From positions 64,001 to 128,000 of IMG/VR virus record IMGVR_UViG_3300036790_000396: a stretch of 64,000 bases of DNA. One strand, 5' to 3'. The translations under genes and the position numbers were made by a program. Origin of the DNA: a virus. The notes below the pieces were generated by a model. It worked only from the letters and a program-made list of their open reading frames with translations, did no database searches and had not been told where the DNA came from. Shown in pieces: positions 26,268 to 61,757 of this stretch (the stretch's first letter is position 1; each line of letters opens with the position of its first letter).

Positions 26268-29200
26268 ATGCCACAGCAACGTTTTGTCCGTATAGCGCAT
26301 GATCCCGGAGACCCGCAGCTTTGTTCCCATTGCTTCGGGCCTGAGACGAGATACCTCACGCCGGATGGCGTCAAGACCTTGGGCGAGACGGTCGGGACTG
26401 CCCAGCGGGTAATGACCGCGGATTCCCTCCAGTCTCACGACGGGCGCTGGGCCGATGCTGAGATCCGCTCGTTCGGCGTACAGCAGCTGCACCGGATCAC
26501 CCTGAAGCGCAACAAGGTAACCAAGGTGATCCGGGCGACTGCCGGGCACCGCTGGCTGGTGCGCCGCCCGGATCGCATTGTCACGACGGATCGTCTTCTC
26601 CCGGGCCACCGGCTGGCCACTGCCCGGCTCCCGCGCCAGGAGCTGGCGATGGACCGTGAGGGCATCTGCCATGGTTTCTTTTTCGGCGACGGAAGCCTGC
26701 GCCGCACGGAGAACGCTGATTACGGCAAAGTGATCCTGTGGGGGCAGAAGCGCGAGCTTGCTTCTTATTTTGAGGAAATAGCAGGTCGTCCCGGCGTCGA
26801 GAAGCACACTCCGAATGGCGTTCCCGGTCTTGCGTTCCAGGCCGGGATGAAGGGCTATGCCAAGTCGCTGCCGCTGCTGACGATGCCGCCCGAGTACCTT
26901 TACGGCTGGCTGGCCGGCTACTTTGCCGCAGACGGGTGGAGCGGGGGCACCAACGCCTCTCTCTCGTCTGCGGTGCGCGCTCACCTGGAGCACGTACGCG
27001 ATATCTGCACGCTGCTCGGCATAGGTACTTACGGTATTACCTCGAAGACGCGCACTGGATTCGGGAAGGAATCTGAGATCTTCGAGGTCGGGTTCAGCCA
27101 GTCCGACCTCAATACGGATTTTTTCCTTCGCAGTGATCACCGCGAGGCCCGCAGGCCGCCGCCCCAGGAACGTTTCGGATGGACAGTCGTCTCCGTCGAG
27201 CCAGATGCTGAAGAAGAAGTCTTCTGCGCGATTGTTCCGGAGAATGAGCGCTTCGCGCTCGAAGACAACATCCTCACCATGAACTGTCCTTTTTGCGGCT
27301 CCGGTCAGATTACGGGCAGATCTGACGGGGGCATAGACTGTGCTTTCTGCGGACAAAGCTTCATAGTTCGGGTACAGCCCGCTTTCCCAGGCATGCCGCA
27401 AGCGCCCGGAATGGGCGCTCCCACCGATGCCGGGCCCGAGGGCATCCCGGTGGGCCTTCCCCCCGGTGCCGGGCCCGAGGGCCTTCCCCCCGGTGCCGAC
27501 GGCGGCATGCCTCCCGGCGGGGACGAGGAAGGCGGCGGCTTCCCGCCCGGCGGTGACGAGGACGAAGAGGCCCCTCCCGGCGCGGATGACGAAGACGAGG
27601 ACGACGGTGCTCCTCCCTTCGCGAAGAAATCATCGCGCCGCCTGGGCGCCCACGAGCATCCTGATGACGACCTGCGCCGTCACCTCGCCGAGGAGCACGG
27701 CCACGGCTGGATCGAGTACCCCGGCGTCAGCGAGATCAGCCGCATCCACGATGCCGACCACCGCAACCGCGGCGCCGCCGCCCACCGCGGGGACATCGCC
27801 CCGCCGCTGCAGTCTCTTCCCGAGCCTGCGGCCAGGCACTGGCCGGCCCACCGCCGCGAGCGCTTCGACGATCCTCGCCTCGGCGACAGCTACGGCGACC
27901 GCTTCGGGGCTGAGGATGTTGCGGACCAGTACCGCCGCGAGACGCACGGACAGCCTTCCCCGGACTCGGACTACGGCCGGTTCGCCCCCGCGCCCCCGGA
28001 GCGCCGTCACCTGTCCGTCCGCCGCTACCGCACCATTTCCGGCGACGTGCTCCCCGAGGACGCCTACATCCGCCATCTCGCCGTCCTGCACTCCGGCGGC
28101 AGCTCCCGCGTGCTGGCGCTGCTGCGCCGCGAGGCGGCATCCGGGGGCGACGACGGCAGGCTGCCCCCCCGCAGCGTCATGACGCAGCGCCAGCACCTGC
28201 AGGCGACCCGGGACATGCGCGACCGTCTCGCCGCGTCCGGGTTCCCGATGGACGCCCCGTCAGGCGACGAGGACATGCGGATGAACCCGTCGTGCAGGCT
28301 GGAGACGGGGCATCACATCTCATTCGGCGTGGAGCTGCGCGGCGGGAAGCACTCGATGTTCATCACCCACCCGGCGGACATGGGCCAGGGCCGCACGTTC
28401 CTGGAAGTCGGCCTGGGGCGTGACCCGTCCCGCGTGGCGGATCTCGCCCGCCGCGAGCTGGGCTGCCCTCATGTTGCGGGGGAAATGACGGAACAGCTCC
28501 GCGGCCACGGCGACGAGCCCCTCAGGCAGCCGCCCTCGGCCCGGTCGGTGAGGCACGAGGCGGAGGGCACGCAGCCGCGCGAGGCGTCCCTGCGGTACCG
28601 TGCCGCGTTCGACTGGGACAATGCCACCGAGGACGAGGCCGACCGTGAGTTCCAGCGCCGTGAGGACGGGATGCAGGATGCGGTAGAACGCCACGGCGTG
28701 GACAGCATCCTGCGTCCCAACCGCGTGAACCGGATAGAGACCGGTCACGAGATCTCTTTCGAGCACCATCCCGCGGAGGGGGAGGGAGATGATTACTGGA
28801 CGGTCGGCGTCAACCATCCGGCTGACTCCTGGACCGGGGATGCGGAGCGCTACCCGCGCTACTACTGGAAGGGCTTCCGCGGTCCTGACGACGACGTGGT
28901 CCGCCAGGCGGTGCAGCACCTGCGCTCTCCCCGGACGATGGACGTGATGCGCGAGCAGTCCCGCCGTGCGATGAGCCGCGAGGCATCCCTGCGGCGCCGG
29001 GCCGACCTGGATTACGACGAGGTCCCTGAGGGGCACGCGATGTCCAAGCGGGAGCAGATCAGCCGGCTGCGCGAGATGCGCGGGCGCCTGGAGGACCACG
29101 GGATCCGGATGCTGCCGTCTGATAGCGGCATGGCTCCCTACTTCGACCTGGAGACCGGGCACCGCATCCTCCTGGGCCTTTCGCAGCAGCACGGGGACTG

Positions 29201-29465: not shown

Positions 29466-32400
29466 AGGTCAGGTTCTCGCCGACGGCGGCGCTCCAGCGC
29501 GACCAGGCGGTCGCCCAGGGCATGAGCCGGATGCTCGCCCGCGGCGCGGAAGGCGCCCGCGATGACATGACCCCCGAGGTCGCCGAGGCCCGCATCAACC
29601 GGCGGGCATCGCTGCGCCGGACCGGCAGCTACGGCGGGGGAGGAGGCGGCGGAGCCTCTGGAGGCTTCTCGGACATTCAGTTCGCAACCGGGAGGCCCAG
29701 GGATCCTCTCTTCTACTGGAGGCAGAACAACCTCCCGTACGACTTCAGCCAGAACGAGGAGCTGGCGAAAGTCCGTGCCTTCTGCCGGCTGCTGTACCAG
29801 ACCGACCCGATTGTCGGGTCCTGCATCGACATCTTCACGAAGTTCCCCACGATCGGGATGAACCTGGAGTGCCTCGGGCGTGACACGGGAGTCCTGACGC
29901 GCCAGGGCATGCGTCCTATCGGCGAGCTAGCCGGATCTGCCCAGGAGATCCTGACCGTCGGCGGCAAGTGGGCTACGGCGAAGTTCGAGAATTACGGCAG
30001 CAGGCGCCTTTACAAGATCACCCTGCGCCGTAACCGTCGTGAGAAGACGATTTACGCCACAGAAAATCACCGCTGGTTCCGCTGGAATGCGGACAAGGAA
30101 GCAAGGCGCTACGAGGGATCTTTCAATCCTGCTTCTAAGGTTTCGTGGGAGGATGTTCGAGAAATAAGGCTTAAATACGCTGAAGGCGATATTACTCAGA
30201 AGGACCTGGCTTCAGAGTACGGGATAACTCAGCCGGCGATCGGCCAGATAATCAGGCATGGCACCTGGAAGAATCCTCCCGCTGAGAAAAAGGAGCAGGC
30301 AACTAGAGCCTTTCCGGTGAAGGAAGAGGCAGTCACCGCTGACCTCATGCCGGGAGACCGGCTTGTCAGCGGGTGGTCGAAGAACCTCATCCATTCGACG
30401 TTTCCTTCTCCTTTTGGGATCGCGCATGGCATGACGTACGGAGACGGTTCTCTGGAGACATCCGGAGGCGGCTCCTACATCACGCTGTACGGGGTGAAGG
30501 ATCTCCAGATGCTGCCGTATTTCAACGGCTGCCATGTGACGGATCCTCCCTCTGAAGCTCGCCGGAACGGAAGGCGCGTCAGCGGCCTTCCGTCTTCGTT
30601 CAGGCAGCGCCCGACCTTGGACGAAGGGACTTCCTACCTGTACGGCTGGCTGGCTGGCTACTTTGCGGCAGACGGCACCGTGTCCAGTGGCGGAGAGTGC
30701 TACCTAGATACTGCTTTTGAAGACAATGCCAGGTTCATTCAGCATCTCTGCACAGTCTTGGGAATCAAGACCTATGACTATTACGCGTACACGGTGCCCT
30801 TTGTTCAGACGCCTCAGGGAGCTGTCTACGAAAATCACGAATCATACCGCGTGCCCATCGATTCTGCGTCTCTTACGAAGGATTTCTTCTGCATCAGCGA
30901 GCATCGTGCGCGATGGGAAGGGCGCAAGGAACGTCAGCGACGAGAAGAATGGACTGTCATAGGAGTAGAGCGTACAGACCAGGTCGAAGAGGTTTTCTGC
31001 GCTAAGGTTCCCGAAACGGAATCTTTTGTCATCGAGGGAAATATCCTCACCGGAAACTGCAAGGACAGCCGGCTGGAGGATTTCCACGGCGGCCTGTTCT
31101 TCGACGAGGACCATCTCGACTACGAGGAGTTCCTCGTCGACATCGGCCGCGAGTACTGGACTTCCGGGGAGGCGTGGCCGTTCGCCACGTTCAACGAGGA
31201 TCTCGGCATCTGGGATGACGAGGAGCTGCTCAACCCCGACGACGTCAAGGTCGAGCGCAGCCCGTTCCTGAAGGAGCCCCGCTACTTCATCCGGCTCCCG
31301 TGGACCATCCGGCAGATCCTGCAGACGCGCCAGCCCCAGTACGAGTACTCCCGCCTCGTGCAGGAGTACCCCGAGCTGACCGCCTACACGGCGGAGAACA
31401 CGTTCATGCCCGTGTCGAACGTGCTGCTGCGCCAGCTGAAGTTCCGCGGCGACACGTTCAACGTCCGCGGCCTCCCGCTGCTGACCCGCGCCATGCGCGC
31501 GATGCTGCAGAAGGAGATGCTCAACACCGCGCTGGACTCGATCGCGGACCGGCTCTACACGCCGCTGATCCTGTGCAAGCTCGGCGCCTCCGCCACCGAC
31601 CTCGGGACCAGCCAGCCGTGGATCCCCACCGAGGACGACATGGAGAACTTCGAGCTGGCCCTCGACGCCGCCCTCGCCGGGGACTTCCGTGCCCTGATCT
31701 ACAACTTCGCCGTCGACATGGCGCCCGTCCTGGGCCGCGAGCAGATGCCCGACCTCACCCCTGACTTCGAGCGGATCGAGGACACGGTGCTGCAGGTCTT
31801 CGGGCTGTCCCGCACGCTGCTCACCGGTGCCGGGGCCGGGCAGACCTACGCCGCCGACGCGCTGAACAAGGATCTCGTCACCCAGCTGATGAGCCGGTAC
31901 CAGAAGTTCCTTGCCCGCCACTTCCGGCAGCGCGCCCAGGTCGTCGCCGAGGCCCAGGAGCACTACGACTACCGCGAGCACGGCGGCAAGAGGTACGTCA
32001 TCATGGAGGAAGTCCTCGAAACCGACGAGGAGACCGGCGAGAAGCGCCTCGTCGAGCAGCCCAAGCTGCTGGTGCCCGAGCTGAAGTTCAAGGTGCTGAA
32101 CCTGTCGGACGAGGACGCCCGGCGCCAGTTCATCGAGGCGCTGCGCTCCGGCGGCGTCCCCGTCTCCCAGCGCACCCGCACCCGCGGCCTCGACGTCGAC
32201 CTGCAGGAGGAAGAGGAAGTCTCCTCCGACGAGGCCGTCCGCCAGGCGGTCAAGGAGCAGGAAACCCGCAGGCAGACGTTCATCGCGCTGCGAGACGGCG
32301 GCCTGCCCATCCCGGAGGATCTCGCGACGGACTTCAGCCCGCACGCCCAGGTCCAGGGGATGCCCGCGATGCCCGGCGCACCGGGGATGCCGCTCCCGCG

Positions 32401-45551: not shown

Positions 45552-46433
45552 ATGAGCGAGGCTCCTCCCGTCCGGTTCGCCGGCCCCCTCCAGCTGGCTC
45601 CCCCTGCCGCTGTTCCCGCTGATCCCGAGGACTCGCGTGCGGTCCTCATGACCGTCACGCCCGAGACCGCCGCCCGCTGGCTGTCCCTGGACGTGCTGCG
45701 GCGTCCCGTCCGCAAGTCCAAGCTGGTCGAGTTCGCCCGCGACATGCGCGGCGGCAGCTGGGTGCTCAACGGCGAGACGATCAAGCGCGCGCTGGACGGC
45801 GGCGTGCTCGACGGCATCCACCGTCTCGCCGCCGTTGCCGAGTCCGGCGTCTCCATCCGCTCCTGGGTCATCGAAGGGCTGCCGCCCGAAGTGCAGTCCA
45901 CCATCGATACCGGTTCCCCTCGCACCATGAGCGACCAGCTTCACATGCGCGGAGTGCCCAACTCGGTGCTGCTGGCCGCGATCACCAAGCGCGGCTGGCG
46001 CTGGCTGCAGGGTCACCGGGGCAGCGGCGGTCCCACTCCCACGCACACTGAGATGGACCTGATGATCGCCACCGTCCCGGTGCTCGCCGAGGCGACCGCC
46101 TACGCGCAGCAGGCGCGCCGGGACTTCCCGATGATCAGGGCATCGGTCTACGGCACCGCCTACCTGATCTTCTCCGCCGTCTCCAGCATCGCGGCCCGCG
46201 CCTTCCTCGAAATGGTGTCCACCGGGGAAAGCCTGCACAAGGGCGACCGGGCCCTCGCGGTGCGCAACCGCATGATCCAGGCCGCCAAGCAGGGCGAGCG
46301 CAGGCTGAACGAGCACGAGCAGCTCGCCCTCATCATCATGGGCTGGAACGCCTGGCGCGACGAGCGCTCCCTCGCGCACGTCCAGCTCCCCGCCGGCGGC
46401 CTGAAGGCCGTCAACTTCCCCGAGCCGAAGTAG
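45552..46433 (+). CDS. ParB/DndB-like protein
   Basis: VTPETA..WL...RDM..G.W..NGE.I......LDG.HRL.A. Confidence 0.7.
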   Translation: MSEAPPVRFAGPLQLAPPAAVPADPEDSRAVLMTVTPETAARWLSLDVLRRPVRKSKLVEFARDMRGGSWVLNGETIKRALDGGVLDGIHRLAAVAESGVSIRSWVIEGLPPEVQSTIDTGSPRTMSDQLHMRGVPNSVLLAAITKRGWRWLQGHRGSGGPTPTHTEMDLMIATVPVLAEATAYAQQARRDFPMIRASVYGTAYLIFSAVSSIAARAFLEMVSTGESLHKGDRALAVRNRMIQAAKQGERRLNEHEQLALIIMGWNAWRDERSLAHVQLPAGGLKAVNFPEPK

Positions 46434-46459
46434 CCGCGGGGATCACCGGGGGAGCGGTC

Positions 46460-46729
46460 GTGTTCCTGGCCGGGATCCTCATCGGGCGCTACGGCCCGTG
46501 GCGCAGGAGCCCGCAGCCGCAGGAGAACGGCCCCTCCTGCGGCTGCGGCCACCACCTGTCGTTCCACGAGAACGGCACCGGCCGCTGCCGTTTCGAGAAG
46601 CGCGGCAGGGCGGCCAGCTACGACAGGGGCAGCCGCCCTGTCGGGTGGGATACGGAACGCTGCGGCTGCCAGCATTACAGCGGCCCGGAGCCGTATCCCG
46701 AGTACTACGCTCGGGACATCTCGTCCTGA
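46460..46729 (+). CDS. Small Cys/His-rich protein
   Basis: CGCGHH...C...CGCQHY.GPEP. Confidence 0.55.
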   Translation: MFLAGILIGRYGPWRRSPQPQENGPSCGCGHHLSFHENGTGRCRFEKRGRAASYDRGSRPVGWDTERCGCQHYSGPEPYPEYYARDISS

Positions 46730-46821
46730 GGGGGTGAGGCCGCTGTATCCCGTAGGTGACACGGCGCCCCTGTTAGCCGGCCTCCGTCCCTCGGAAGAAC
46801 AGAGGGACGGAGGCCGTTTTC

Positions 46822-47739
46822 ATGTCGCTGACCAAGTACGCCAGCCTGGAGCTGCTGGAGGCGTGGCGCGTGCCCGCGAAGGCGACGCCGCGCGGGCTGT
46901 CCAAGGCGGCGCACCGCGTCGACTTCGAGTACACGCCGCGGCCCGGCTACCTCGCGTACTGTTGCCATGTGAGAGACAGCAACAAGGGAAAAAGCTGCAC
47001 GGGGCCCGGGTGCCTTCGGGAAGCAAAATGCAAGGGTCTTTGCCTTGCTCATTACACTCAGCGGAGATCTGGAAAAGATCTTTCCGTGATCCGCGTTCGT
47101 GCAAAAAATGCTACGGACTCCTGCGTATTTCCCGGATGCGATCGTCCCCATTTTGCTAAAGAATACTGCAAATCCCACTATCATCAGCGGCAGCGTCACG
47201 GAGAAGTAACAGTATTTCGTCAGTTCTTGGAAATTTGTTCTTTTCCTGGATGCGATCGTGGTCACTCTGCGCATGGATACTGCGACGGGCATGCGATTCA
47301 GCTGCGGAAGGGAAAGGAGCTGTCTCCCCTCCGGGCTCGCCAGAAGGGCCGTGTATGCACAGTAGACGGCTGCAGCGATCCTTACCTTGCCCGCGGCTTC
47401 TGCGCAGTTCATTATAACCAGTGGCACTGGGCTGAATCGGAAGAGGGACGCGAGGCTCGAAAACGTGCTTTCCACAAGCGACGTGCTATTAAGGCATCTG
47501 CCGAGACAAGACTGATCTCTTCTCGCGAATGGAAGCGCCTGGTCAATCGTTACCAGGGGAAATGTGCTTATTGCAGGAAGGCCCCGTGGAATCATCGTGA
47601 GCACATAATTCCCCTAAGCCGCGGTGGAAGGGAATCGATCGGGAACCTGCTTCCGTGCTGCGAGAGATGCAACACGTCTAAGCACAATAAGCTTCTCTCT
47701 GAGTGGAGGTACGGTGCTTCGCAAGTACGCATCGCTTGA
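46822..47739 (+). CDS. HNH homing endonuclease fused to the original N-terminal 44 codons of the prohead protease
   Basis: Four C..PGC....A.G.C..H repeats; CAYC...EHIIPLSRGG...NL...C..CN..K; N-terminus paralogous to 47714-47833. Confidence 0.88.
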   Translation: MSLTKYASLELLEAWRVPAKATPRGLSKAAHRVDFEYTPRPGYLAYCCHVRDSNKGKSCTGPGCLREAKCKGLCLAHYTQRRSGKDLSVIRVRAKNATDSCVFPGCDRPHFAKEYCKSHYHQRQRHGEVTVFRQFLEICSFPGCDRGHSAHGYCDGHAIQLRKGKELSPLRARQKGRVCTVDGCSDPYLARGFCAVHYNQWHWAESEEGREARKRAFHKRRAIKASAETRLISSREWKRLVNRYQGKCAYCRKAPWNHREHIIPLSRGGRESIGNLLPCCERCNTSKHNKLLSEWRYGASQVRIA

Positions 47740-47833
47740 GGTACTGGAGGCGTGGCGTCAGACATCTTCTGCTGCTATGTCGAAAACTGCTCATAGAGTA
47801 GATTTTTCGTACATTCCACGTAAAGGATACTTG
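46954..47833 (+). mobile_element. HNH insertion element carrying a new RBS and recoded protease 5' end
   Basis: Low GC; removing it restores PRPGYL|YVRSRAISSR in frame. Confidence 0.75.
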
Positions 47834-50800
47834 TACGTCCGCTCCCGGGCTATCTCCTCGCGCACCAACGACAACCACGACACGTTCGAGGCCCCGGAGA
47901 TCGAGCAGGGCTACCGGACTTTCCTCGGAAAGCCCGCCTTCGTGAATCACCGTAACAGCAACCACCGCCGTGCCCGCGGCGTCATCGTGGCCGTGGCGCT
48001 GCACCGGGACCGCAACCCTGACGGCTCCCCCGACACCTGGGTCGAGGCACTGCACGAGCTGGACGCGGTGCGGTTCCCCAAGCTGGCGAAGGCGATCATC
48101 GAGGGCCGCGTCAACCGCACCTCGATGGGCGTCGACTGCGAGTACTCCACCTGCTCCGCGTGCGGCAACCGGGCCACCAACCCTGCTGAGTACTGTGCTC
48201 ATCTTCCGGCTCGCAAGGGGCTGAAGATCAGGCAGCGTAACAATGAGACGGGGAAACTGGAAGAGAAGCTTATTCATGAAATATGTGCTGGTCTTACATT
48301 TTTCGAGAACAGTTTTCTCGTAGAGGATCCTGCCGACCCAACTGCCCATGTTTTGGACAAGCCGGACGACAGGGGCATGAAAATAAATGCCTCACGTCAC
48401 GTGCTTCCAGGTGCGCCCCATGCGGATGCAGTTGACCGAGGAAACGGAAACGCCGTACCGGCGCGCTATGTCAGCGAGCGTGAGCGCCCCGGAACCCCGG
48501 TTCATCCAGTCCTTGCCCGTCGCGACCTGAGGCAGCAGTTCACGCTTGATGATCCGGACATCCTCTTCGGTCAGCCTGCGGTTGGGATGAGTCGCCCCGC
48601 GAGCGTGCCGTTCTTTGGACACCATGTCAGCGACGTTGTCGGCCCGCGTGCCGAGGAACCAGTGCATCGGGTTCATGCACGGCGGCCAGTCACAGCGGTG
48701 GAGTACCCCCAGGCGCGCAGGGATCGGGCCGCGAATCAGCGCCCATCCGTATCTCGATCCCAGGACACTTCTGCGGTCCGTGCCCGACAGCGTGAACCGC
48801 GGGTAGCCGGTCCTGAAGAATCCTCCCGTCCACGGATTGCAGAATCCCGGTCCGGGCGTGAAGTCGATTTTCGACAGGAAGCGCTCGATCTCGGACTCAG
48901 TGCTCGCGAAGCGTCCGTCTACCAGCGATCGTTCCATGGACGTGATTCTATCAATAATCCTAGGCAGGCCCGCTACCTCACCATGGATGAGGCCCGCGCT
49001 GCGGGCCGCGAGGCCATCCGGCGGCAGGCGGAGGATCCCCGCTTCGACGGCGTCGGCCTGAAGCAGGACGATGACGGCTGGTACGTGCGCACGCACCGGG
49101 CGCGCAGCCGTTCCCATCCCGTCCCGGAGGCGATCCCCGCGAAGGACATCGAGTTCATCCGCTCTACCGGGTCCCGCCGCACCGCCCGCAACGAGGAGGG
49201 CGGCGAGATGCCGGTAGTCCCCTCCAGCCGCCTCCCCCGGGTGAGCCTCCCCGAGTCCCGGAGCAGCTATGAACAGGCCGGCGACTTCCTGGATAACCTG
49301 CTGGGCAACGTGGGAAATCCGGACGCGGCTGAGTGGAGGCCGTCCTATCCCACCCGCGGCTGGGACGACGAGCGCCAGCCCAGGCTGCACGAGGAGCTGC
49401 GCAAGTCGCGCGAGCGCAACCTCCGGCGCGACATTGACGATGACAGCGGCGAGGGCCTGGCCAGCAAGCTCGACCGCCCGGAGCAGTGGGAGCACCAGAT
49501 CGAGCACGGCCTCCCGGAAAGCCTGTTCGGTGCCGGCGTGCACGTCACGCACGATTTCAGGGACGATCCCGAGGGCTTCCTCCGCGACCGGTGGAACATG
49601 CGCGCCTTCCCGTACCGCGACCCGGGCGGCACCGGCCCCGGAGGCCTGAAGCCGTCGAACAAGTGGGTCCGCAAGACCTGGCAGCGGGCAGTCGGCCCGC
49701 TGGCCTGCGACCACCCCGGCTGCCCGCCCTGGGAGCACCGGGGGCCGCGCCCTCAGGCATCGCTGCGTACCGCTGACCGGGACGATGATTACTTCTACGA
49801 CGAGGACGACGATCAGCACCCGGATGAGCTGCCGAGCCGCCGGGACTGGCGCCGGGAGGATGACGTGACCCGCAGCGAGTCCTACCCCTATTCGCCCTCT
49901 CCCGGCTCGGAGGGGCGCGACGACCTGGCGGGCTCCCGCACCCGCGGGCGCCGCGCCGCCGAGTCGTGGGACGGCTTCCCCGACGTGCGCCCCGCTCCGC
50001 CGTCCGGCCCGCGCCTGTCCAGCCGTGTCGCGGCTGCCGGGGACAGCTGGGAGCCTGATCAGTGCCCGGAGTGCGGCGAGGGCTGGACCGAGGGCAGCTC
50101 GCGTTTCGATGACTCAGACTCGCAGTGCCTGAACTGCGGTACCCGTTACAATGCTTTTTCCGGGGCTCCGCTCAGCGATGACGAGATTGCCGTTAATGAT
50201 GCTGCGATGGCCAACGAGCAGCAGAAGCGCGAGGACACGCGCTCCGGGCAGGAACTGTGGAGGAAAGTCCACCCGGGCCCCGGGCACGAGTACTCCTATA
50301 ACCCGGCCGGCGACAATGCCCCGCTGGAGATGATGAATGACCTGCAGGACCAGGAGAACCAGGACAAGAGCGGACCGCTGCGGCTGAACCCGAGGCTTCC
50401 CTCCTACGAGAAGATGATGCGCCGCCGGCGCGAGCGCGCCATCCAGCAGTGGCCGTCCCATCAGGAGGTCCCCGTCGCCCCTCCGGGGACGGAGAGGCTG
50501 TCCAGCCGCATGGCGAAAGGGCGCCATGACTACCGGATGATGCACCAGGCTCCCGACCGGCACAGCGGCGTTCCCTATCACGAGGCGAGCGGCGCGGACC
50601 CGGATGACCTGGTCACGATCTACCGGGGAGTGCCCCGGAACGTGAAGACGATTCACCGCGGCGACTGGGTGACCACCGATCCGGCCTACGCCCACCAGCA
50701 CGGGCGCCACAACTCCGACCCATCGAAAGACTGGCCGGTGCTGCAGGCGGACGTTCCTGCGCGGCACCTGTACTGGGACGAGAACGACGAGAACGAGATC

Positions 50801-53020
50801 GGCTACCAGGGGCCGCACCTGGGCCAGCGTGACGTGAGCTACCACGAGGAAGACCCGGATGATGTCCCGGGCGCTGCCGATCCTGATGCGTGGCGCGGGC
50901 ATTTCGCCTCCGTGCGCCGCCGCGCGGACATCTCCGACGACGAGATCCGCCGCGGCCTGAACCTCCCCGGCTCCCGCGAGGAGGAGCACCAGGAGGACGT
51001 GCGCGACAAGGTGAACGGCCTCTTCGGCCCGCTGCACGAGGACTACGGCGGCCAGGAGAACTACAACCTCGCCCGGCAGAACGACACGATGACGGACCTG
51101 CAGCGCCGCTTCGAGGGCGGCCGGGGCAGGTTCGCCTTCGACGAGGAGGGGGACCCCTACTACGAGGCCCGGCACCCGTCCGGCTGGAGGGCCCGTGTCT
51201 ACACCGACCAGAGCGGCGAGGCCCAGGTCCACCACGACGCGACCGGCGACGAGGCCCACGACGTGATGGACATCGGCGAGTGGGGGCCGCAGGGTCACCG
51301 CCTGTCAGAGACCTACGGCCCCGCCGATCTTGACCGTGATCTCGCCGCGTGGCACGGCGATGACGGCGAGGAGGGGTACCGGGCGCACCTGGAGCAGGAG
51401 GACCCGCGCATCCGCCGGCGGAAGCGCCGTCATCAGGGCGCGCGCCGTACCGCCGCCGACCAGCCGCCGCGGATGCCCCCGCCCGTCGACACGCTGCGCC
51501 CCGACAAGTGCCCCGTCTGCGGGGACAGCGACGTGTTCAAGGGCCAGCGCTGCTCCGTGTGCGGGTTCGTCGCGCCGCCGGACATCTTCCGCGATCCCGA
51601 CACCCAGCAGGCCGCGCAGAACCACCAGATGCTCGAAGAGGGCAAGGTCCCCCTCGGCATGCCGGAGGGGCCCGCCGACGAGGAGCAGGTCGGCTCCGGC
51701 CAGGACGCTGACGACCAGCTGCTGCACCCTGACCAGATCGCCCCCGACGGCGTCCCCGGCGTGCAGCCCGGCAGCAGCCAGCCCGAGAACGGCCCCCTCG
51801 GCGGCGGCCAGGACGAGGGCCTCGTCGATCCCTCCCGCGTGAGCGCCCAGGGCGACGTCCCCGAGGAGGACGAGGAGCAGGCGGCGCAGCAGGAGACGGA
51901 CGAGGGAGAGCAGCAGGCGGCGGAAGGACAGGCCGAGGAGGAAGAGGGAGCGGCCCGCGCCGACGAGGCGCAGGCAGCCGCAGCGGGGGAGCAGGAGGCC
52001 GAGGACGCTGACGCGGATGCCTCGCCCCGGAAGGATCAGGACGACGACCGCCCCGGAGGGAAACGCAGGATGGCTAAGCAGCAGCAGCGGCGGCAGGCAC
52101 CGCCCCGGTCTCGCCAGGAGCCGCGGACTGCCGCGACTGCGGTGCTGGCCGCCCAGCAGGACACCATCCGCCGGCAGGCGGCCCAGATCCGCTCTCTCGC
52201 CGCGCAGATGAGCTTCCTCGCGGACCTCGCCGGGGTCCGGCCGCAGATGGAGCAGATCCGCCGGCAGGCCGACATGATGAACCCGGCCTCCCCCGTCCCG
52301 GACCCGCCGGAGCGGCCCCCGTACGAGACCACCGAGCAGGCGCTCCAGCCGGAGACGATGGGCGACGCGAGCCGCCCGGGCACCGAGCCCGGGTCGACGT
52401 CGCACGTGCCTGCCGCGATGACCACCACTTCCGTCACGCCGGGCGTCGAGATCCAGACGGCGCCGGCCTCCTACCTCGATGACGTCACCGCTCCCGTCCA
52501 GGGCACCAACCCGTCGGAAGACGGCGGCGTGCCGGTTGAGCAGCGGCGCATCGAGACCGATGTCCGGATTGACCCTGACCCGCTGAAGGCCCAGGGTCCG
52601 GGCATCGGGGGACTGGGCAGCGACGGCACCGCCTACCCGTGGGTGATCGCCGCCCGCGGCGGCATGCCGCGCACCGCCTCGCAGGCGGCGGCCTCGCAGG
52701 AGGATGAGCACGGGGCGCGCACGTTCGCCTCGATCCGCCTTGCCCGCGCCCGCGTCACCGCGGGGCTCGCCCGCGGCGACGAGCTGGAGGGCGCGGCCCT
52801 CATCGAGAAGGACGCGTCGCTGTCCCTGAGGGACATCGAGCGGGAGATCGGCACGCTGGAGAAGGTCGCCGCCGCGGCCCCGCCGCAGCGTCCCCGCGCC
52901 TCGCAGCGCACCGCCGCCCGGTCGGCGCCGTCGATGTCCGCGCCGCCGCAGCTGGCCCGCACGGCGAGCTACTCCGACCCGGGCGACCCGATGGACGCCT
53001 CGGACGTGTTCCTCGACTGA
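47714..53020 (+). CDS. Prohead (capsid maturation) protease / cargo / scaffold polyprotein
   Basis: GGAGG RBS plus GTG; RAISSR.NDN.D.F...GKP.FVNH...TSMG...CS.CGN protease-like domain; internal modules; helical scaffold-like C-terminus. Confidence 0.8.
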   Translation: MLRKYASLEVLEAWRQTSSAAMSKTAHRVDFSYIPRKGYLYVRSRAISSRTNDNHDTFEAPEIEQGYRTFLGKPAFVNHRNSNHRRARGVIVAVALHRDRNPDGSPDTWVEALHELDAVRFPKLAKAIIEGRVNRTSMGVDCEYSTCSACGNRATNPAEYCAHLPARKGLKIRQRNNETGKLEEKLIHEICAGLTFFENSFLVEDPADPTAHVLDKPDDRGMKINASRHVLPGAPHADAVDRGNGNAVPARYVSERERPGTPVHPVLARRDLRQQFTLDDPDILFGQPAVGMSRPASVPFFGHHVSDVVGPRAEEPVHRVHARRPVTAVEYPQARRDRAANQRPSVSRSQDTSAVRARQREPRVAGPEESSRPRIAESRSGREVDFRQEALDLGLSAREASVYQRSFHGRDSINNPRQARYLTMDEARAAGREAIRRQAEDPRFDGVGLKQDDDGWYVRTHRARSRSHPVPEAIPAKDIEFIRSTGSRRTARNEEGGEMPVVPSSRLPRVSLPESRSSYEQAGDFLDNLLGNVGNPDAAEWRPSYPTRGWDDERQPRLHEELRKSRERNLRRDIDDDSGEGLASKLDRPEQWEHQIEHGLPESLFGAGVHVTHDFRDDPEGFLRDRWNMRAFPYRDPGGTGPGGLKPSNKWVRKTWQRAVGPLACDHPGCPPWEHRGPRPQASLRTADRDDDYFYDEDDDQHPDELPSRRDWRREDDVTRSESYPYSPSPGSEGRDDLAGSRTRGRRAAESWDGFPDVRPAPPSGPRLSSRVAAAGDSWEPDQCPECGEGWTEGSSRFDDSDSQCLNCGTRYNAFSGAPLSDDEIAVNDAAMANEQQKREDTRSGQELWRKVHPGPGHEYSYNPAGDNAPLEMMNDLQDQENQDKSGPLRLNPRLPSYEKMMRRRRERAIQQWPSHQEVPVAPPGTERLSSRMAKGRHDYRMMHQAPDRHSGVPYHEASGADPDDLVTIYRGVPRNVKTIHRGDWVTTDPAYAHQHGRHNSDPSKDWPVLQADVPARHLYWDENDENEIGYQGPHLGQRDVSYHEEDPDDVPGAADPDAWRGHFASVRRRADISDDEIRRGLNLPGSREEEHQEDVRDKVNGLFGPLHEDYGGQENYNLARQNDTMTDLQRRFEGGRGRFAFDEEGDPYYEARHPSGWRARVYTDQSGEAQVHHDATGDEAHDVMDIGEWGPQGHRLSETYGPADLDRDLAAWHGDDGEEGYRAHLEQEDPRIRRRKRRHQGARRTAADQPPRMPPPVDTLRPDKCPVCGDSDVFKGQRCSVCGFVAPPDIFRDPDTQQAAQNHQMLEEGKVPLGMPEGPADEEQVGSGQDADDQLLHPDQIAPDGVPGVQPGSSQPENGPLGGGQDEGLVDPSRVSAQGDVPEEDEEQAAQQETDEGEQQAAEGQAEEEEGAARADEAQAAAAGEQEAEDADADASPRKDQDDDRPGGKRRMAKQQQRRQAPPRSRQEPRTAATAVLAAQQDTIRRQAAQIRSLAAQMSFLADLAGVRPQMEQIRRQADMMNPASPVPDPPERPPYETTEQALQPETMGDASRPGTEPGSTSHVPAAMTTTSVTPGVEIQTAPASYLDDVTAPVQGTNPSEDGGVPVEQRRIETDVRIDPDPLKAQGPGIGGLGSDGTAYPWVIAARGGMPRTASQAAASQEDEHGARTFASIRLARARVTAGLARGDELEGAALIEKDASLSLRDIEREIGTLEKVAAAAPPQRPRASQRTAARSAPSMSAPPQLARTASYSDPGDPMDASDVFLD
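48392..48937 (-). CDS. HNH endonuclease with C-terminal HTH, nested antisense inside the protease ORF
   Basis: C..WTG...GY......V.H.CD.P.C.NP.H...GT..DN..D...K.R; HTH tail; own -10 TAGAAT 7 nt upstream of the ATG. Confidence 0.9.
   Translation of the reverse strand: MERSLVDGRFASTESEIERFLSKIDFTPGPGFCNPWTGGFFRTGYPRFTLSGTDRRSVLGSRYGWALIRGPIPARLGVLHRCDWPPCMNPMHWFLGTRADNVADMVSKERHARGATHPNRRLTEEDVRIIKRELLPQVATGKDWMNRGSGALTLADIARRYGVSVSSVNCIRMGRTWKHVT
52070..53020 (+). CDS. Putative internally initiated scaffolding protein (in frame with the protease)
   Basis: GGAGGG/AGG RBS and an upstream 18-bp copy of the putative late-promoter motif (52025-52042). Confidence 0.5.
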   Translation: MAKQQQRRQAPPRSRQEPRTAATAVLAAQQDTIRRQAAQIRSLAAQMSFLADLAGVRPQMEQIRRQADMMNPASPVPDPPERPPYETTEQALQPETMGDASRPGTEPGSTSHVPAAMTTTSVTPGVEIQTAPASYLDDVTAPVQGTNPSEDGGVPVEQRRIETDVRIDPDPLKAQGPGIGGLGSDGTAYPWVIAARGGMPRTASQAAASQEDEHGARTFASIRLARARVTAGLARGDELEGAALIEKDASLSLRDIEREIGTLEKVAAAAPPQRPRASQRTAARSAPSMSAPPQLARTASYSDPGDPMDASDVFLD

Positions 53021-55567: not shown

Positions 55568-55857
55568 GGTTCCTCCCGGGGATGTGAAGAGGCCCCTCCC
55601 GCGGTGACAGCGGCGGGAGGGGCCCTGCTCCGCTCCGGCGGGGTACCGGGTGCGGAGAGTGCCGCGCGGTCCGTGCTGCGCGGCGGGAGGAGCGGGTGGC
55701 TCTCCCTGCTCCGGAGTGTACGCGAGCTGCCCGGATGATCGCAAGGTTTATTGATTTTCCCTGGAGTTCAACCTGAACCATATCGCTCTGCTCCAGGCCC
55801 GGGGCCGTAGCGAGACGGATTCGACTGGCGCTTGCGCTCCCAGTACAGCTTCATCTT

Positions 55858-56190
55858 CTAGCTGCGGCTTAGCTGCTCGTAGTCATCGGGCTTTTGGTAG
55901 ACCTCTGGCGGGAGAAAAGATCGCCGCTTCCGGTTCTGGGTAAAAGCGTCGGCCCACTGAACATTTCCGGGCTCGTAATTTCCCTCATTATCGACGCGGT
56001 CAAGAGTATGTCCGTCAGGACGTTCTCCCAGGTTGCCGATGATCCATTCGTAGAATTTTTCGTAATTGTGCCAGTCTGAATGTACCCTTATTCCTCTTTC
56101 TCCATAGTTAATATAGTCTTTGTCCCTTTCGTTCTCGCATCTGCGGATCATTGAGTACCAGGCGCTGTAGAGGGGTTTAGAGGATCCCAC
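55858..56190 (-). CDS. HNH-family endonuclease (short, low GC)
   Basis: Y..W.SM..RC......Y..YG.RGI.V...W...TLDR.DN.GNYEPGN.QWA. Confidence 0.85.
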   Translation of the reverse strand: MGSSKPLYSAWYSMIRRCENERDKDYINYGERGIRVHSDWHNYEKFYEWIIGNLGERPDGHTLDRVDNEGNYEPGNVQWADAFTQNRKRRSFLPPEVYQKPDDYEQLSRS

Positions 56191-56336
56191 GCTCCTATTT
56201 TATCAATATTCCTAGGTTCCGTACCTTCAACCTCAGCTTTAGCTCGGAAGTAGCAGGAGAGGGGCACGCGTTTCTCCCCGGAATACGTAGAGGGAGGTGC
56301 AGCGTGAGCGGACCGTACGCCGGGATGGCGGTGAGG

Positions 56337-57206
56337 TCAGTTCTCGCTGCCGCCGTCCTCCTGCAGGGCCTCCAGCAGGATGCGCCCGGCTTCCAGGATC
56401 TCCTCGCGCGAGGGCTTCAGGTAGACGATGGCCTTCGCCATGCGGACGGGATCGTCGCGGAAGGAACCGAGCCCGGAATTGCAATCCCGGTCCAGGTAGC
56501 CCCGGATGCGCCCGTTCTCGTGATCGTGATCGACGCACAGGGACGTCCCGTTGGTGCCCTTGGCGTTGGGCTCGCCTCCGCAGATGTCGCAGCGGCCAAA
56601 CCGCTTTGCTACCTGGGCGTCGTACTCGGCTCCCGTGACGCCGTACGCGCGCTTGAGGGCAGCGTCCCGGACCTGGCGCCGGTACGCGGGATTGCGCTCG
56701 CGCCATTCGGCGTGCTTTTCCTTGATGACCTCGGCGTTGGCGTTGCGGTAGTCCTCGGCGCTCTGGTGCTCCCGGTTGGAGCACACCCATCCCTTGCCGC
56801 GATCGGCTTTCTGGAGAATTCCGACGCGGCTTCCGCAGCCCCGGCAGTCAGCTGTCCGGCTCTCGGGATCGATGTTCACCAGGTAGTGCTGCGTGACGAG
56901 CCGGCCGAGGCATCTCCACTGAGTGCGTCCCGTCTTGGTCTTGCCGTGGATCCGGATGCTGACGGGGCCGCAAATCGAGCACGTGGCCGTGCGCATCGTC
57001 TCGTCGACGTCACTCAGGCCGTGCGTGATCTTGTGGCCGGCGTGCCCGCGGACGAACCGCTTCGGCTCCCCGGCGGTGTAGCCGTTCGCAGTCTCGGACT
57101 GCGTGGCGATAGTGGTCTCCTGCCCGCACCCGCAGTGGCACGTCCCGTAGGGAATCGTGCACCCGGGGGTACACGGGCAGGTCTGGTTACCAAGGTTGCT
57201 TGTCAT
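56337..57206 (-). CDS. Endonuclease VII-family homing endonuclease with N-terminal Zn modules
   Basis: YGVT..EY......G.C.IC...L.VDHDH..G.IRG.L...CN.GLG.F.D. Confidence 0.88.
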   Translation of the reverse strand: MTSNLGNQTCPCTPGCTIPYGTCHCGCGQETTIATQSETANGYTAGEPKRFVRGHAGHKITHGLSDVDETMRTATCSICGPVSIRIHGKTKTGRTQWRCLGRLVTQHYLVNIDPESRTADCRGCGSRVGILQKADRGKGWVCSNREHQSAEDYRNANAEVIKEKHAEWRERNPAYRRQVRDAALKRAYGVTGAEYDAQVAKRFGRCDICGGEPNAKGTNGTSLCVDHDHENGRIRGYLDRDCNSGLGSFRDDPVRMAKAIVYLKPSREEILEAGRILLEALQEDGGSEN

Positions 57207-57334
57207 AACTCCGAAGGTACCAGAGAGCAGAGCCTGTTTAAACAGGCTCTTTCGTCCGTTCAAACGGATGATCAGCCCGCAGTTCTACTCGGCGCTGAGG
57301 GGAAAGCCCTCGAACACAGATTGGAAAAAGCGCG

Positions 57335-58072
57335 GTGATCAGGACCTACCTCAGCAACGACTATATCAAAAGGACGATCCGTCCCCTCTTTACCTGGACG
57401 CAGGCAACGCCCAAGCCGGTGTTCCTCGACCCGAACTGGACGCGGTCGGTGCCGATCTGGCCGGGCATGGGCTTCGTCCGGACCGTGGGCGACCTCGTCA
57501 CCCTCGCCGGCTCGAACAACGCCCAGCTGAACAGTGCCTACGGCACGGCGACCGACGGCAGCGCCGGCGCCTGGGGACACGCGGGCACGTCCGGCAACGG
57601 CTCGTACGCCCTCAGCACCACGTACGGGACGCCTCCCGTCTACGGGCTCGGCGGGCTGTACGTCGGCGGCGACGGCATCGACGAGCTGCTGTACGCGGGC
57701 ATCAACGCCTTCTCGGTCTGGGTCCTGGGCCCCGACGCGGAGTTCGAGATCCTCGCGCCGGCGTTCGACCCCACCAGCACCTGGGACGACCCGCAGGTGC
57801 TGTCCGGCAGCGGCATGACCGGCGGCGGCTCCGCACTCGTCGGCGTCGCCCTGCAGAACGCCAGCGGGGCCCAGGGCTCGGCTCAGCTCGGCACCGGCAC
57901 CCTCCAGGGGCAGCTCGTCCCCTGGGCAGCGTCGGCATCCATCTCGGCCCCGGTCGCGAAGCTGCTGAAGCAGAACTCCAGCACGAAGATCACGATCGGC
58001 GGCCTGTCGCCGTACGACGCCAACCAGATCCTGGCTGGCATCGGCACGGCCGGCACTGTCGGCGTCAACTAA
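57335..58072 (+). CDS. Capsid decoration protein (cluster C-like)
   Basis: KRTIRPL...QATP...FLDP...PGM...VWVLGPDA.FEILAPAFD; directly upstream of the MCP. Confidence 0.75.
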   Translation: MIRTYLSNDYIKRTIRPLFTWTQATPKPVFLDPNWTRSVPIWPGMGFVRTVGDLVTLAGSNNAQLNSAYGTATDGSAGAWGHAGTSGNGSYALSTTYGTPPVYGLGGLYVGGDGIDELLYAGINAFSVWVLGPDAEFEILAPAFDPTSTWDDPQVLSGSGMTGGGSALVGVALQNASGAQGSAQLGTGTLQGQLVPWAASASISAPVAKLLKQNSSTKITIGGLSPYDANQILAGIGTAGTVGVN

Positions 58073-58103: not shown

Positions 58104-59123
58104 ATGACCGAACTCGCGACGCTGGCCCCCCAGGGGCAGCTGACCGCGCAGGGCGCTCCGTCCGGGCTGCGCCGCGTAGCGGCTCGCAAGTCTGACGACT
58201 ACGTCACGGACATCGAGCGGCGGCGGGCCTCCCGCTCGCCGCTCACCCGTGAGGCCAAGGTCCGCAAGATGGCCCTGGTCCTGTCCGACGAGATGCACGG
58301 CTTCCGCCGCCTGGGCGTCGGCATGGTCGGCCCCATCCAGCTCAAGCTCCGCTATCAGGGCATCACCCGCAACGTCCTGGTGGAGGACCCGGTCACCCCC
58401 GGCACTCCCGTCGAGTACGACGTGTGGGACGACCTGGGCCAGGCGTACATCCTGTCCGGCACCGAGGGCGAGGTCCGCGTGACCCCGTTCGAGGGCAAGC
58501 GGATCCCGGTCCGGTTCTTCCGGATCGCGTCCCGCCCGGCGATCCGCAAGGAAGACCTCTTCTACCTGCGGATCAACGCGGTCGAGCAGGCCCAGGACGA
58601 GACCAAGCAGGCGATCCTGAAGCAGGAGGACGCGCGGCTGCTCGTCATCCTGCAGGCCGCCGTCACGGACTACGCCACCCGCCCTGACCACGTCGTCACC
58701 CCGAACCACAACATCACCGAGGCCAGCGGCTACCTGACGCCGGGCTCCCTGTACTCCGCGGTCGCGATGACCGACCTGCACGAGCTTCCCTCGGCGCGGA
58801 TCCTCATCAACCCGTTCGACTTCCGGGACCTGTACAGATGGGACATAAACCAGACAGGATGGGCTTTTAAGGACAGGGTGGTAGCTGGTGAGACAATCAC
58901 CTCATTTGGTGAGTTTCAGCTCCAGCGCTCCATCATCGTCCCGCAGGCCAAGATCTTCCTGACGCCCGAGCCGAACTTCCTGGGCGTTTTTCCAGTTCTG
59001 TACTCTCTTGATGTGGAAGAGAACCATCTGGTCGAGGCTTTCTGGAAAGGTTGGGTTTTCGACGAAATGGTGGCCATGTCGATCCTTAACCCAAGGGGCA
59101 TAGCTACTATAACGAAAAGCTGA
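58104..59123 (+). CDS. Major capsid protein (Bxz1/cluster C-type)
   Basis: GPIQL.LRYQGI.RNVL.ED...FEGKR...DLYRWDIN.TGWAFKD.VVAGE...FLGVFPV.YSLDVEE. Confidence 0.93.
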   Translation: MTELATLAPQGQLTAQGAPSGLRRVAARKSDDYVTDIERRRASRSPLTREAKVRKMALVLSDEMHGFRRLGVGMVGPIQLKLRYQGITRNVLVEDPVTPGTPVEYDVWDDLGQAYILSGTEGEVRVTPFEGKRIPVRFFRIASRPAIRKEDLFYLRINAVEQAQDETKQAILKQEDARLLVILQAAVTDYATRPDHVVTPNHNITEASGYLTPGSLYSAVAMTDLHELPSARILINPFDFRDLYRWDINQTGWAFKDRVVAGETITSFGEFQLQRSIIVPQAKIFLTPEPNFLGVFPVLYSLDVEENHLVEAFWKGWVFDEMVAMSILNPRGIATITKS

Positions 59124-59177
59124 GTATTTTCTGTGATGGTCTCAGCGAAGATCATCACAGATGATACAAGGTCATCG

Positions 59178-59239
59178 TTGACATGACTCACCCTCTCCGT
59201 GTAGCCTGACATCAGGATCACATGGAGAGGGTGAGTCAT
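59178..59239 (+). promoter_or_regulatory. Promoter embedded in an RBS-sequestering hairpin
   Basis: TTGACA-N18-TAGCCT; ATGACTCACCCTCTCC (59183-98) pairs with GGAGAGGGTGAGTCAT (59224-39). Confidence 0.7.
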
Positions 59240-59241
59240 TT

Positions 59242-60219
59242 ATGGCACCAAAATCGTCAAAGCCGAAGTACATTGACGAGGTCAAGCGGCTCTACATCAC
59301 GGAGCTGTGGTCTCTTAGCGAGATCAGTCAGCGGCTTGGCCCGAGCGTGCAGACACTTTCTCGCTGGCTGGGTGAAGAGGGGATCGAGCTAGCCGCCCGG
59401 CCCCGCGACCCTAACGCAGGACGCACGCCAGGGGCCCAGGCCGAGATCAATCAGCGCATCAGTGCCGCTCAGGCTGCGCGCCTGGAGTCCGGCGGCAACC
59501 GCGGCGGCCGGGTAAAGCAGTTTGCCGAAGAGACGCGTTCCTGCGCGAATCCGGGATGTGATGCCGCTTTCCGTGTCCGCGAAGACTCCTCGCAGCAGTT
59601 CTGCAGCCGCCAGTGCGCACGCACGGTGGGCAATAAGCAGCGGTGGGACGGGAAGAAAAATATGACCACATGCCCGTGTGGTGAGATATTCTACAGCCCG
59701 TATCCGAAGAAATATCATTCAGATGAATGCCGACAGGAATACGGCGGCAAGAGGCAGCCTAACCCGGCTAACACTCTTACGGGGATCTGCCAGAATCCTG
59801 GCTGCCCGCAGTCGGCTCGTGAGTTCTCTTACCCGAAATCGCAAGGGCACCGGAAGTACTGTTCTGATAAGTGCTCGCAGGAGCATGTGCGTCCCATCGA
59901 GCAGCTGAACGGCCTGGAAAAGCAGTTCACCGGCTTGTGCGAGCTGACGGGCATCGGCTGGCGTCGGCCTTTCGCCGACGAGCAGATCTCGTGGGGCGAG
60001 CGCGGATCTTACGCGCCTGACTTCATCTGCGAGTGGCAGGGCTCCGTGGTTGCCATCGAGACCAAGGGCGACTACTGGATTAAGGAAGACACCCATGCCA
60101 AGATCGACGCGTGGCGCGCTCGCAAGGAGATTCCCGTGATTCTCCTGTTCGAGTCCCAGGTGAGGGAGCTGCGGATGATTCCCGATGCGGCTGCCTTCTG
60201 GATGCGGCTGCAGGGATAG
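59242..60219 (+). CDS. Putative homing endonuclease: HTH, Zn (TRASH-like) repeats, PD-(D/E)xK domain
   Basis: HTH at the N-terminus; three C..C...(F/Y)CS..C repeats; YAPDF...IETKG. Confidence 0.8.
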   Translation: MAPKSSKPKYIDEVKRLYITELWSLSEISQRLGPSVQTLSRWLGEEGIELAARPRDPNAGRTPGAQAEINQRISAAQAARLESGGNRGGRVKQFAEETRSCANPGCDAAFRVREDSSQQFCSRQCARTVGNKQRWDGKKNMTTCPCGEIFYSPYPKKYHSDECRQEYGGKRQPNPANTLTGICQNPGCPQSAREFSYPKSQGHRKYCSDKCSQEHVRPIEQLNGLEKQFTGLCELTGIGWRRPFADEQISWGERGSYAPDFICEWQGSVVAIETKGDYWIKEDTHAKIDAWRARKEIPVILLFESQVRELRMIPDAAAFWMRLQG

Positions 60220-61063: not shown

Positions 61064-61104
61064 CTTTTACCGGCAAGTGCGGCAGCGAGGTAAGCTGCGG
61101 CGCG

Positions 61105-61143
61105 GTGCCCCGGCCTCTCTGGGAGATGTGAGGCCGGGGCACT
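61105..61143. repeat. 39-bp hairpin/terminator, copy 2
   Basis: Identical to 60233-60271. Confidence 0.85.
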
Positions 61144-61317
61144 ATTCTCTGATCTCTGAGGCCATATAACTCTCAGTTACTGGTTCAGGATCTACCAGGG
61201 TATTCTACCCAGGTCTATAGTCATATTTAACTGTTTTAATTGTCACCCATTGTGTTCGCCGTCGAAGATGAGGATGATGAGGAAGGTGCAGCCAGCACAT
61301 AGAGGCAAGGAGTAATA

Positions 61318-61461
61318 ATGCCTGGATTCGACGGAATACTGCAGCGGATAGGCAGCTGGGAGTGCGAGGCCGATCCTTCGCACCGCATCACTGTCAATAG
61401 CCGAGGCGAAGCTTCATGCGGAGTAGACCAGAGTCACGCAGTGAAGCGCGAAGAGAACTAG
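61318..61461 (+). CDS. Small hypothetical protein
   Basis: AAGGAG RBS; 47 aa with two C...H half-motifs, translated by hand. Confidence 0.4.
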   Translation: MPGFDGILQRIGSWECEADPSHRITVNSRGEASCGVDQSHAVKREEN

Positions 61462-61493
61462 CTTTTATCAATAAACCTTGCTATCCTGGCCTC

Positions 61494-61757
61494 ATGATCA
61501 CTTCCGTACCTCCCCGCGAGGTCCCGGCCGACGAGGCCGGCGGCCATGCCGCCTGGCACGCCTGGCGCGAGCACCTCGGCCTGGGCACCGCCGGCCCCGA
61601 CACGCTCATCTGGAACCGCCTCGCCTCCCGCAGCCGGGTCCTGTGGGTGCAGCGCGCCGCCGCTCCCGGCTGCTCCCTCCCCGACGACAGCGCGCTGCTG
61701 CGCCAGGTCATGGCCGCGCACGCCGCCAGCCCGGAGGCCGGCAATGGCCGCGGCTGA
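61494..61757 (+). CDS. Hypothetical protein (leaderless)
   Basis: -10 TATCCT 6 nt upstream. Confidence 0.55.
   Translation: MITSVPPREVPADEAGGHAAWHAWREHLGLGTAGPDTLIWNRLASRSRVLWVQRAAAPGCSLPDDSALLRQVMAAHAASPEAGNGRG

Follow-up and report, generated by a model that had tools for sequence, protein, structure and literature searches.

To our knowledge, homing endonuclease genes in essential coding sequences have been thought to survive only by means of introns, inteins or gene splitting. In yeast mitochondria, intron open reading frames (ORFs) that are in frame with the upstream exon let the nuclease borrow the start of the host gene, and RNA splicing restores the host gene. In the mobE-associated "genes-in-pieces" nrdA of Aeh1 and in the split gp43 of T4-related phages, the host protein is made as two polypeptides that reassemble. 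The free-standing homing endonucleases of T4 (SegF, SegG, SegB, and mobE) home without an intron and with co-conversion. In fungal mitochondria, mobile endonuclease ORFs (mORFs) replace the ends of genes, as in Glomus atp6, atp9, cox2, and nad3 (PMC3630166) and in Allomyces macrogynus atp6 (Paquin et al. 1994, as cited by PMC3630166). In actinophage methylase genes, ShiLan-type HNH genes form hidden, out-of-frame insertions through which the host frame reads (PMC11855218).

The locus analyzed here places a zinc-finger HNH nuclease gene inside the prohead protease-scaffold gene of a double-stranded DNA phage. As with the free-standing nucleases of T4, a nuclease lies beside a conserved gene, its distribution is patchy, and diverged host-gene DNA would travel along with it, but the T4 nuclease genes lie between genes and replace flanking DNA, with neither gene-end duplication nor start fusion. 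Like Aeh1 nrdA and the split gp43, it has a homing endonuclease gene within an essential phage coding sequence without splicing, whereas the host protein here would stay whole by means of a duplicated N-terminus. The translation start of the host gene is borrowed as it is by the yeast mitochondrial intron ORFs, but those depend on RNA splicing. Several features are shared with the fungal mORFs, in which the endonuclease enters a conserved gene without an intron and brings a diverged gene end that completes the expressed gene, the native end is left as a duplicate with low DNA but high protein identity, and the endonuclease ORF can be in phase (PMC3630166). Conversely, replacement in fungi affects the 3' (C-terminal) end, the nucleases are of the LAGLIDADG or GIY-YIG type, and the genomes are organellar, whereas here it is the 5' end that is concerned, a new ribosome-binding (SD) site and start come with the cassette, and the nuclease takes over the native start that was displaced. 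The cassette therefore works like an mORF, as its 5'-end mirror, yet is not a member of the fungal mORF group. Gene-end replacement by endonucleases in fungal mitochondria had been named as a precedent in a preliminary description of this DNA, and that precedent is real (PMC3630166). No description of the 5'-end arrangement in phages was found in the literature searched, the coverage of which was limited.

Anatomy of the locus and identity of its genes

The window (the whole stretch of DNA that was analyzed, 64,000 nucleotides) comprises bases 64001-128000 of a complete, metagenome-assembled viral record of 146,944 bp with direct terminal repeats, and its base composition is approximately 69% G+C. 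Relatives of its head module occur in the Mycobacterium phages Phrappuccino and cluster C and in the Rhodococcus phages Finch and E3, where the counterpart of the protease gene is a long ORF of 850 to 990 codons placed between the genes for the portal and the major head protein. The arrangement in the window was as follows.

46779..46821, plus strand: native protease 5' UTR, with hairpin arms at 46779-46792 and 46802-46815 and GGAAG in the loop
46822..46953, plus strand: copy A, the native 44-codon protease leader, with a GC3 of 1.00 like the rest of the genome and with the family leader motifs present
46822..47739, plus strand: leader-HNH fusion ORF of 305 amino acids, the 44-codon leader followed by a 261-residue nuclease
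46954..47833, plus strand: putative mobile cassette of 880 bp, comprising the HNH body, then an SD and GTG, then the replacement leader
47705-47709 and 47714-47716, plus strand: new ribosome-binding site GGAGG and GTG start, the SD lying within the conserved C-terminal E-W-R codons of the HNH
47714..47833, plus strand: copy B, the 40-codon replacement leader, with a GC3 of 0.42, contiguous with the core
47834..53020, plus strand: remainder of the ORF of the prohead protease-scaffold polyprotein, with the core protease domain ending at about 48350

Copy A joins the HNH in frame without a stop and is now both its N-terminal extension and its translation start. The GTG at 47714 begins four bases past the GGAGG, and copy B shares its first 26 nt with the HNH ORF but is read in a different frame, the HNH stop codon being at 47737-47739. 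The preliminary description had noted both the in-frame joining of the GC-rich segment 46822-46953 to a low-GC HNH and the overlap of the HNH 3' end with a GGAGG, a GTG, and an AT-rich second leader that runs into the protease, and the coordinates and features of both were verified from the sequence. It had also claimed that removal of 46954-47833 restores a seamless gene and had proposed a search for empty alleles. A protease search of a 5.8-billion-protein collection returned 922 homologues, and the junction was checked in the best 120 of these. A single leader directly before Y-V-R-S-R (..GYL-YVRSR..), as in the window after that removal, was found in 117 of the 120, which are empty alleles; the other three were the gene call of the window itself (P0001), a near-twin (P0009), and one row missed by the junction pattern. 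The cassette, a low-GC island, is therefore missing from more than 100 homologues and present at this one site in a handful of carriers. Among the empty alleles, the DNA at the leader|core boundary was nearly invariant.

The first approximately 210 residues of the protease matched PHROG 2774 (1.6e-57) and the head maturation protease family phrog_18299 (3.8e-23), and gp77 of Rhodococcus phage E3 is annotated as a prohead protease. As for a possible Ser/His catalytic center, the protease alignment showed an invariant H and a T-S-M-G motif. An AlphaFold model of residues 1-229 had a mean pLDDT of 61. When this model was compared to the PDB with Foldseek, the top matches were herpesvirus assemblins and T4 gp21 only, with weak E values of 0.015 to 0.3; a PDB sequence search with the protease gave no match. 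The ORF combines homology to head maturation proteases with a position in the head module, where the portal gene lies on one side and the genes for the cement and major head proteins lie on the other, and on the basis of the PHROG matches, this position, and the weak assemblin and gp21 fold matches, we accept the ORF at 47714-53020 as a prohead protease-scaffold polyprotein. In the model, residues 1-26 were below a pLDDT of 50 and the first beta-strand began from residue 39, that is, at the junction. The leader|core junction is predicted to fall where a flexible N-terminal leader gives way to the first beta-strand of the core, and such a boundary would be a tolerant place for protein re-initiation.

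Upstream of copy A, the native SD GGAGG (46809-46813) lies in the 3' arm of the hairpin, 8 nt ahead of the ATG. A related UTR motif, CCGGAAG...GGAGG, was present upstream of the single protease start in empty-allele relatives (L005-L011), and this conserved hairpin element may serve to control late expression or translation. The public gene calls of the protease, both P0001 and P0009, begin at the Leu of G-Y-L (TTG 47831 in the window), dropping 39 codons of the replacement leader, because of the overlap with the HNH ORF; the cassette thus explains a mis-annotation through which the leader was lost.

The HNH domain occupies residues 248-293 (about 47563-47700), C-terminal to four Cys/His zinc-finger-like repeats. 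It matched Pfam HNH_5 (7.6e-11) and HNH (5.4e-9), both above curated cut-offs, and the ORF also matched several PHROG HNH families and the PDB HNH 4h9d at 1e-7. Residues H258, H261, N275, C280, C283, and N284 were invariant in eight homologues, and the ORF carries the HNH catalytic domain expected of a homing endonuclease gene, with its metal-binding and catalytic residues intact. The family is rare, with only about nine close members in very large protein collections. A scan of IMG/VR with the HNH alignment gave 80 loci, all of them distant HNHs. Identity was no higher than 52% when counted along all or nearly all of the matched stretch, most of the loci matched only the C-terminal part of the query, and none adjoined a protease of this family. 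Among 147 representatives of the wider zinc-finger-HNH family, N-terminal capture was found in protease-leader cases only (P0122, P0128, and P0150), the other N-terminal extensions being extra zinc-finger repeats or unrelated sequence.

The two leaders encode similar proteins in very different codons. They were 64% identical in amino acids (BLASTP E value of 4e-18) and 77% identical over aligned DNA columns, with a pS of 0.79, which is at or beyond saturation, and a pN of 0.27. Only 9 of the 27 residues conserved between them used identical codons, the longest exact run common to both was 14 nt, and 7 of the last 15 bases before the right junction differed from the native copy. The GC3 stepped from 1.00 in copy A to 0.53 in the HNH body and 0.42 in copy B and then rose to 0.92 in the next 100 core codons. 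No intact predicted target was left within the window.

Occurrence of the cassette in related phages

An independent JGI contig from another metagenome (L012, which encodes P0009) was 99% identical to the window across 46700-47900, both leader copies and the HNH included. No same-lineage empty allele was found in IMG/VR and JGI metagenome contigs using either a copy-A-specific exact 26-mer or a degenerate empty-junction pattern. The same layout was present in four more lineages (L013, L017, L018, and L102, the L102 member being P0150, a more distant one), whose HNHs were 45 to 57% identical to that of the window and whose protease cores were 58 to 67% identical, so that at least five diverged lineages have it. 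In all five lineages, a native-type leader in frame with the HNH is followed by an overlapping SD and start, a replacement leader, and the core; a duplicated, diverged gene end flanks the nuclease and the element-borne copy completes the gene, as in mORFs. The end of the HNH ORF and the beginning of copy B have 4 to 26 nt in common, and in four of the five (the window, L013, L017, and L018) the SD is GAGTGGAGG, which encodes the conserved E-W-R.

The right junction was always exactly before Y-V-R-S-R. The window and L013 have the left junction after G-(Y/F)-(L/I); it lies two residues earlier in L018 and deeper in L017, the leader having been shortened in these two by in-frame deletions where copy A meets the HNH, and it follows G-Y in L102. 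The frame was intact in all of these variants, and in each of the five lineages the only SD-backed in-frame start for the HNH was that of the native protease, preceded by the native UTR. The upstream genes varied between lineages. For copies A and B, pS exceeded pN in all five lineages, which indicates coding constraint; every family-conserved leader residue was kept by copy B in spite of saturated synonymous change. As far as sequence can tell, copy B is the functional N-terminus of the protease.

In L014, L015, L016, and L020, the same HNH family is divergent from the protease. The distance to the protease start was approximately 100 bp for the HNHs at L014:3900-4741, L016:1-946, and L020:1-1209. 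In these relatives the leader is reduced to a remnant or absent; the remnant was found at the HNH 5' end of L014 and L016, as an inverted partial duplication, and that of L016 matched 9 of 11 consensus residues. Because the leader is truncated in L017 and L018 and is a remnant or absent in the relatives with divergent HNHs, it is dispensable for the nuclease, and the divergent relatives L014, L016, and L020 show that the fusion is not required. The remnants retained by the divergent copies of L014 and L016 suggest that the leader-HNH fusion was ancestral to the family. The same truncations and losses leave without support a proposal of the preliminary description that the nuclease gains from its leader a K.A|H cleavage site and perhaps packaging.

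Three observations bear on mobility. In a protease-core tree, carriers were scattered among empty alleles, with seven label changes for nine carrier rows, although the tree, built from 125 columns, was poorly resolved and well-supported branches forced at least two of these changes. Functional leaders beside this HNH family had GC3 values of 0.42 to 0.80 versus 0.84 to 0.99 for their own cores, also where the HNH is divergent from the protease, compared to 0.80 to 0.97 for leaders and 0.92 to 0.99 for cores in empty alleles, in which a step of this kind was absent. The GC3 step beside the HNH family always ended at the leader|core junction. From this constant end point and the near-invariant junction DNA of the empty alleles, we infer that cleavage takes place in the region of the junction and that the nuclease would carry the leader-coding tract along with it.

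Proposed mechanism and competing explanations

Segment 46954-47833 is probably an intron-less, intein-less HNH homing cassette lying between codons 44 and 45 of the prohead protease-scaffold gene. Translation of the nuclease would begin on the native leader, displaced together with its own UTR, SD, and ATG, and would yield the leader-HNH fusion, and the SD in the E-W-R codons at the 3' end of the cassette, together with the GTG, would re-initiate the complete protease without RNA or protein splicing. The nuclease would cut the leader|core junctions of cassette-free relatives, at highly conserved DNA, and the break would be repaired from the carrier genome, with the native leader as left arm and the core as right arm, so that the HNH and copy B would be copied in. 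The divergent spelling of copy B would both remove the target and lower its identity with copy A so far that deletion would not be easy. Because the upstream genes differ between lineages, a cassette with both homology arms in the target gene itself would be portable among mosaic phages. The core of the preliminary interpretation, a start takeover with a replacement N-terminus and no splicing, is supported by the five-lineage comparison and by the Rfam result given below, although its ideas on K.A|H leader cleavage and on packaging are not.

The preliminary description had also held that the recoding of copy B destroys the target and avoids recombination, and the spelling of copy B fits this. 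The AT-rich spelling may stem either from inheritance from lower-GC donors or from selection for distance from the native sequence; the protein sequence of the tract matches that of high-GC relatives, which would favor selection. Each lineage's copy B was closest to its own copy A and not to other B copies, which ruled out a clustering of B copies as element-borne DNA. This pattern would be unexpected if copy B simply traveled with the cassette and argues against one widely traveling copy B, in favor of spread within lineages, gene conversion, or an origin on several occasions.

More tentatively, and at somewhat less than even chances, both leader copies may be working parts, copy A as left homology arm and nuclease start, and the AT-rich copy B, along with other nuclease-linked patches in this genome, as sequence selected for maximal synonymous distance. 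If so, homing with the arm provided by copy A would not depend on the upstream genes, which vary in mosaic phages, maximal distance from a native sequence with a GC3 near 1 would provide both cleavage immunity and a block on deletion by recombination, and AT-rich patches would be a general signature of homing-endonuclease target sites in high-GC phages.

The duplicated leader could instead be the passive scar of one-sided homing by an ordinary free-standing HNH upstream of the protease. In such an event, the HNH and the donor leader and core would have been copied, the left side, without homology, would have been sealed by end-joining, and the recipient leader would have stayed behind; copy A would have no function, and copy B would be AT-rich only because its donor was. 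Several of the observations agree with free-standing nucleases whose cut lies in a neighboring gene and whose homing co-converts the tract in between. The leaders beside divergent-orientation copies of the HNH are AT3-shifted, the 215-bp recoded tract beside the second HNH (see below) replaces native DNA without duplication, the left junctions differ between lineages, copy B belongs to the same clade as copy A, and the upstream genes vary from one lineage to another, which would often deprive the left side of homology. On the other hand, all five co-oriented lineages have copy A in frame with the HNH and no other SD-backed start, and the secondary deletions also preserve the frame. No complete co-oriented arrangement lacking the leader was found; in L021 a stop occurs 18 nt ahead of the HNH, but the contig extends only 42 nt upstream. 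A leader remnant persists even in the divergent copies of L014 and L016. We consider a passive scar unlikely.

A self-splicing intron, with copy A as exon 1, the endonuclease ORF in frame with this upstream exon, and copy B non-functional, is very improbable. An ORF in frame with the upstream exon is a classic intron arrangement, as in many organellar group I introns, and introns are reported in actinophage capsid and tail genes (PMC3706429). However, Rfam gave no group I or II match over 46000-49600 at an E value of 1 or below, only a chance miRNA match; the insert has only about 94 nt outside the HNH ORF, and these are coding-like. Copy B, with an SD and a start of its own, encodes a protein conserved in five lineages, and it would be pointless if it were spliced out. 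An intein was likewise rejected, since a stop closes the HNH ORF, copy B is read in a different frame, and Pfam gave no Hint domain. The chance of a metagenome assembly chimera or artefactual duplication, which the sharp GC change in a metagenome-assembled record could suggest, is negligible, because the structure is 99% identical in an independent sample (L012), the same layout occurs in four diverged contigs from different sources, and both reading frames are intact.

As an HNH homing cassette, the segment would represent a further route open to phages, in which the 5' end of a gene is duplicated, the old start is given to the nuclease, and a respelled new start serves the host gene. The leader|core junction is a concrete predicted target site, and abrupt patches of A/T-ending codons in high-GC phage genes are suggested as markers of nuclease targets and recombination boundaries.

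A second nuclease gene and other low-GC tracts

A second nuclease gene, of HNH_3 type and on the minus strand, lies inside the protease-scaffold ORF, the plus frame of which is open throughout. By comparison with L012, from which it is missing, the insert is 48400-48966 (567 bp). The preceding tract, 48185-48399 (215 bp), encodes nearly the same protease residues as L012 with a GC3 of 0.51 versus 0.96, a pS of 0.82, and a pN of 0.17, and identity resumes abruptly at 48967. This is a one-sided co-conversion or recoding tract without duplication, and the second HNH serves as an internal control. An actinophage HNH in a host ORF with neither intron nor intein is common to the start-capture cassette and the ShiLan type (PMC11855218), but ShiLan lacks the duplication, and its host frame running on through the insert is matched by the second HNH and not by the cassette.

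In the diverged relatives P0002, P0005, and P0072, a homologous read-through insert occupies the same site past the protease domain. Duplicate copies of an A-x-V-x-G-x-P-D-x-R-G-L segment flank this insert in P0002 and P0005, which suggests that a linker, possibly a processing site, was duplicated around the antisense nuclease gene. The L102 allele (L102:1149-1880) carries the leader-HNH cassette and, right after the conserved Y-C, an intein-like insert (C-F-L-P-G-A-L-V-T-M-A-D-G...). The protease gene family is therefore a hot spot, with no fewer than three types of selfish insert.

Elsewhere in the window, an Endonuclease VII-family gene with zinc-finger repeats (56337-57263, minus strand; Pfam 6.9e-17) is divergent from the cement-protein gene (57335-58072), whose start lies within a low-GC island (57151-57427); region 56337-57427 shows the same pattern of a nuclease beside a recoded gene end, without duplication. 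Another island (58780-60219) spans the 3' end of the ORF at 58104-59123, taken as the major head protein by position and without a Pfam match, and the start of a Cys-rich ORF at 59242-60219, also without a Pfam match. Further low-GC islands were found at 26689-27396, 29964-31114, 55693-56298, and 61104-61540.
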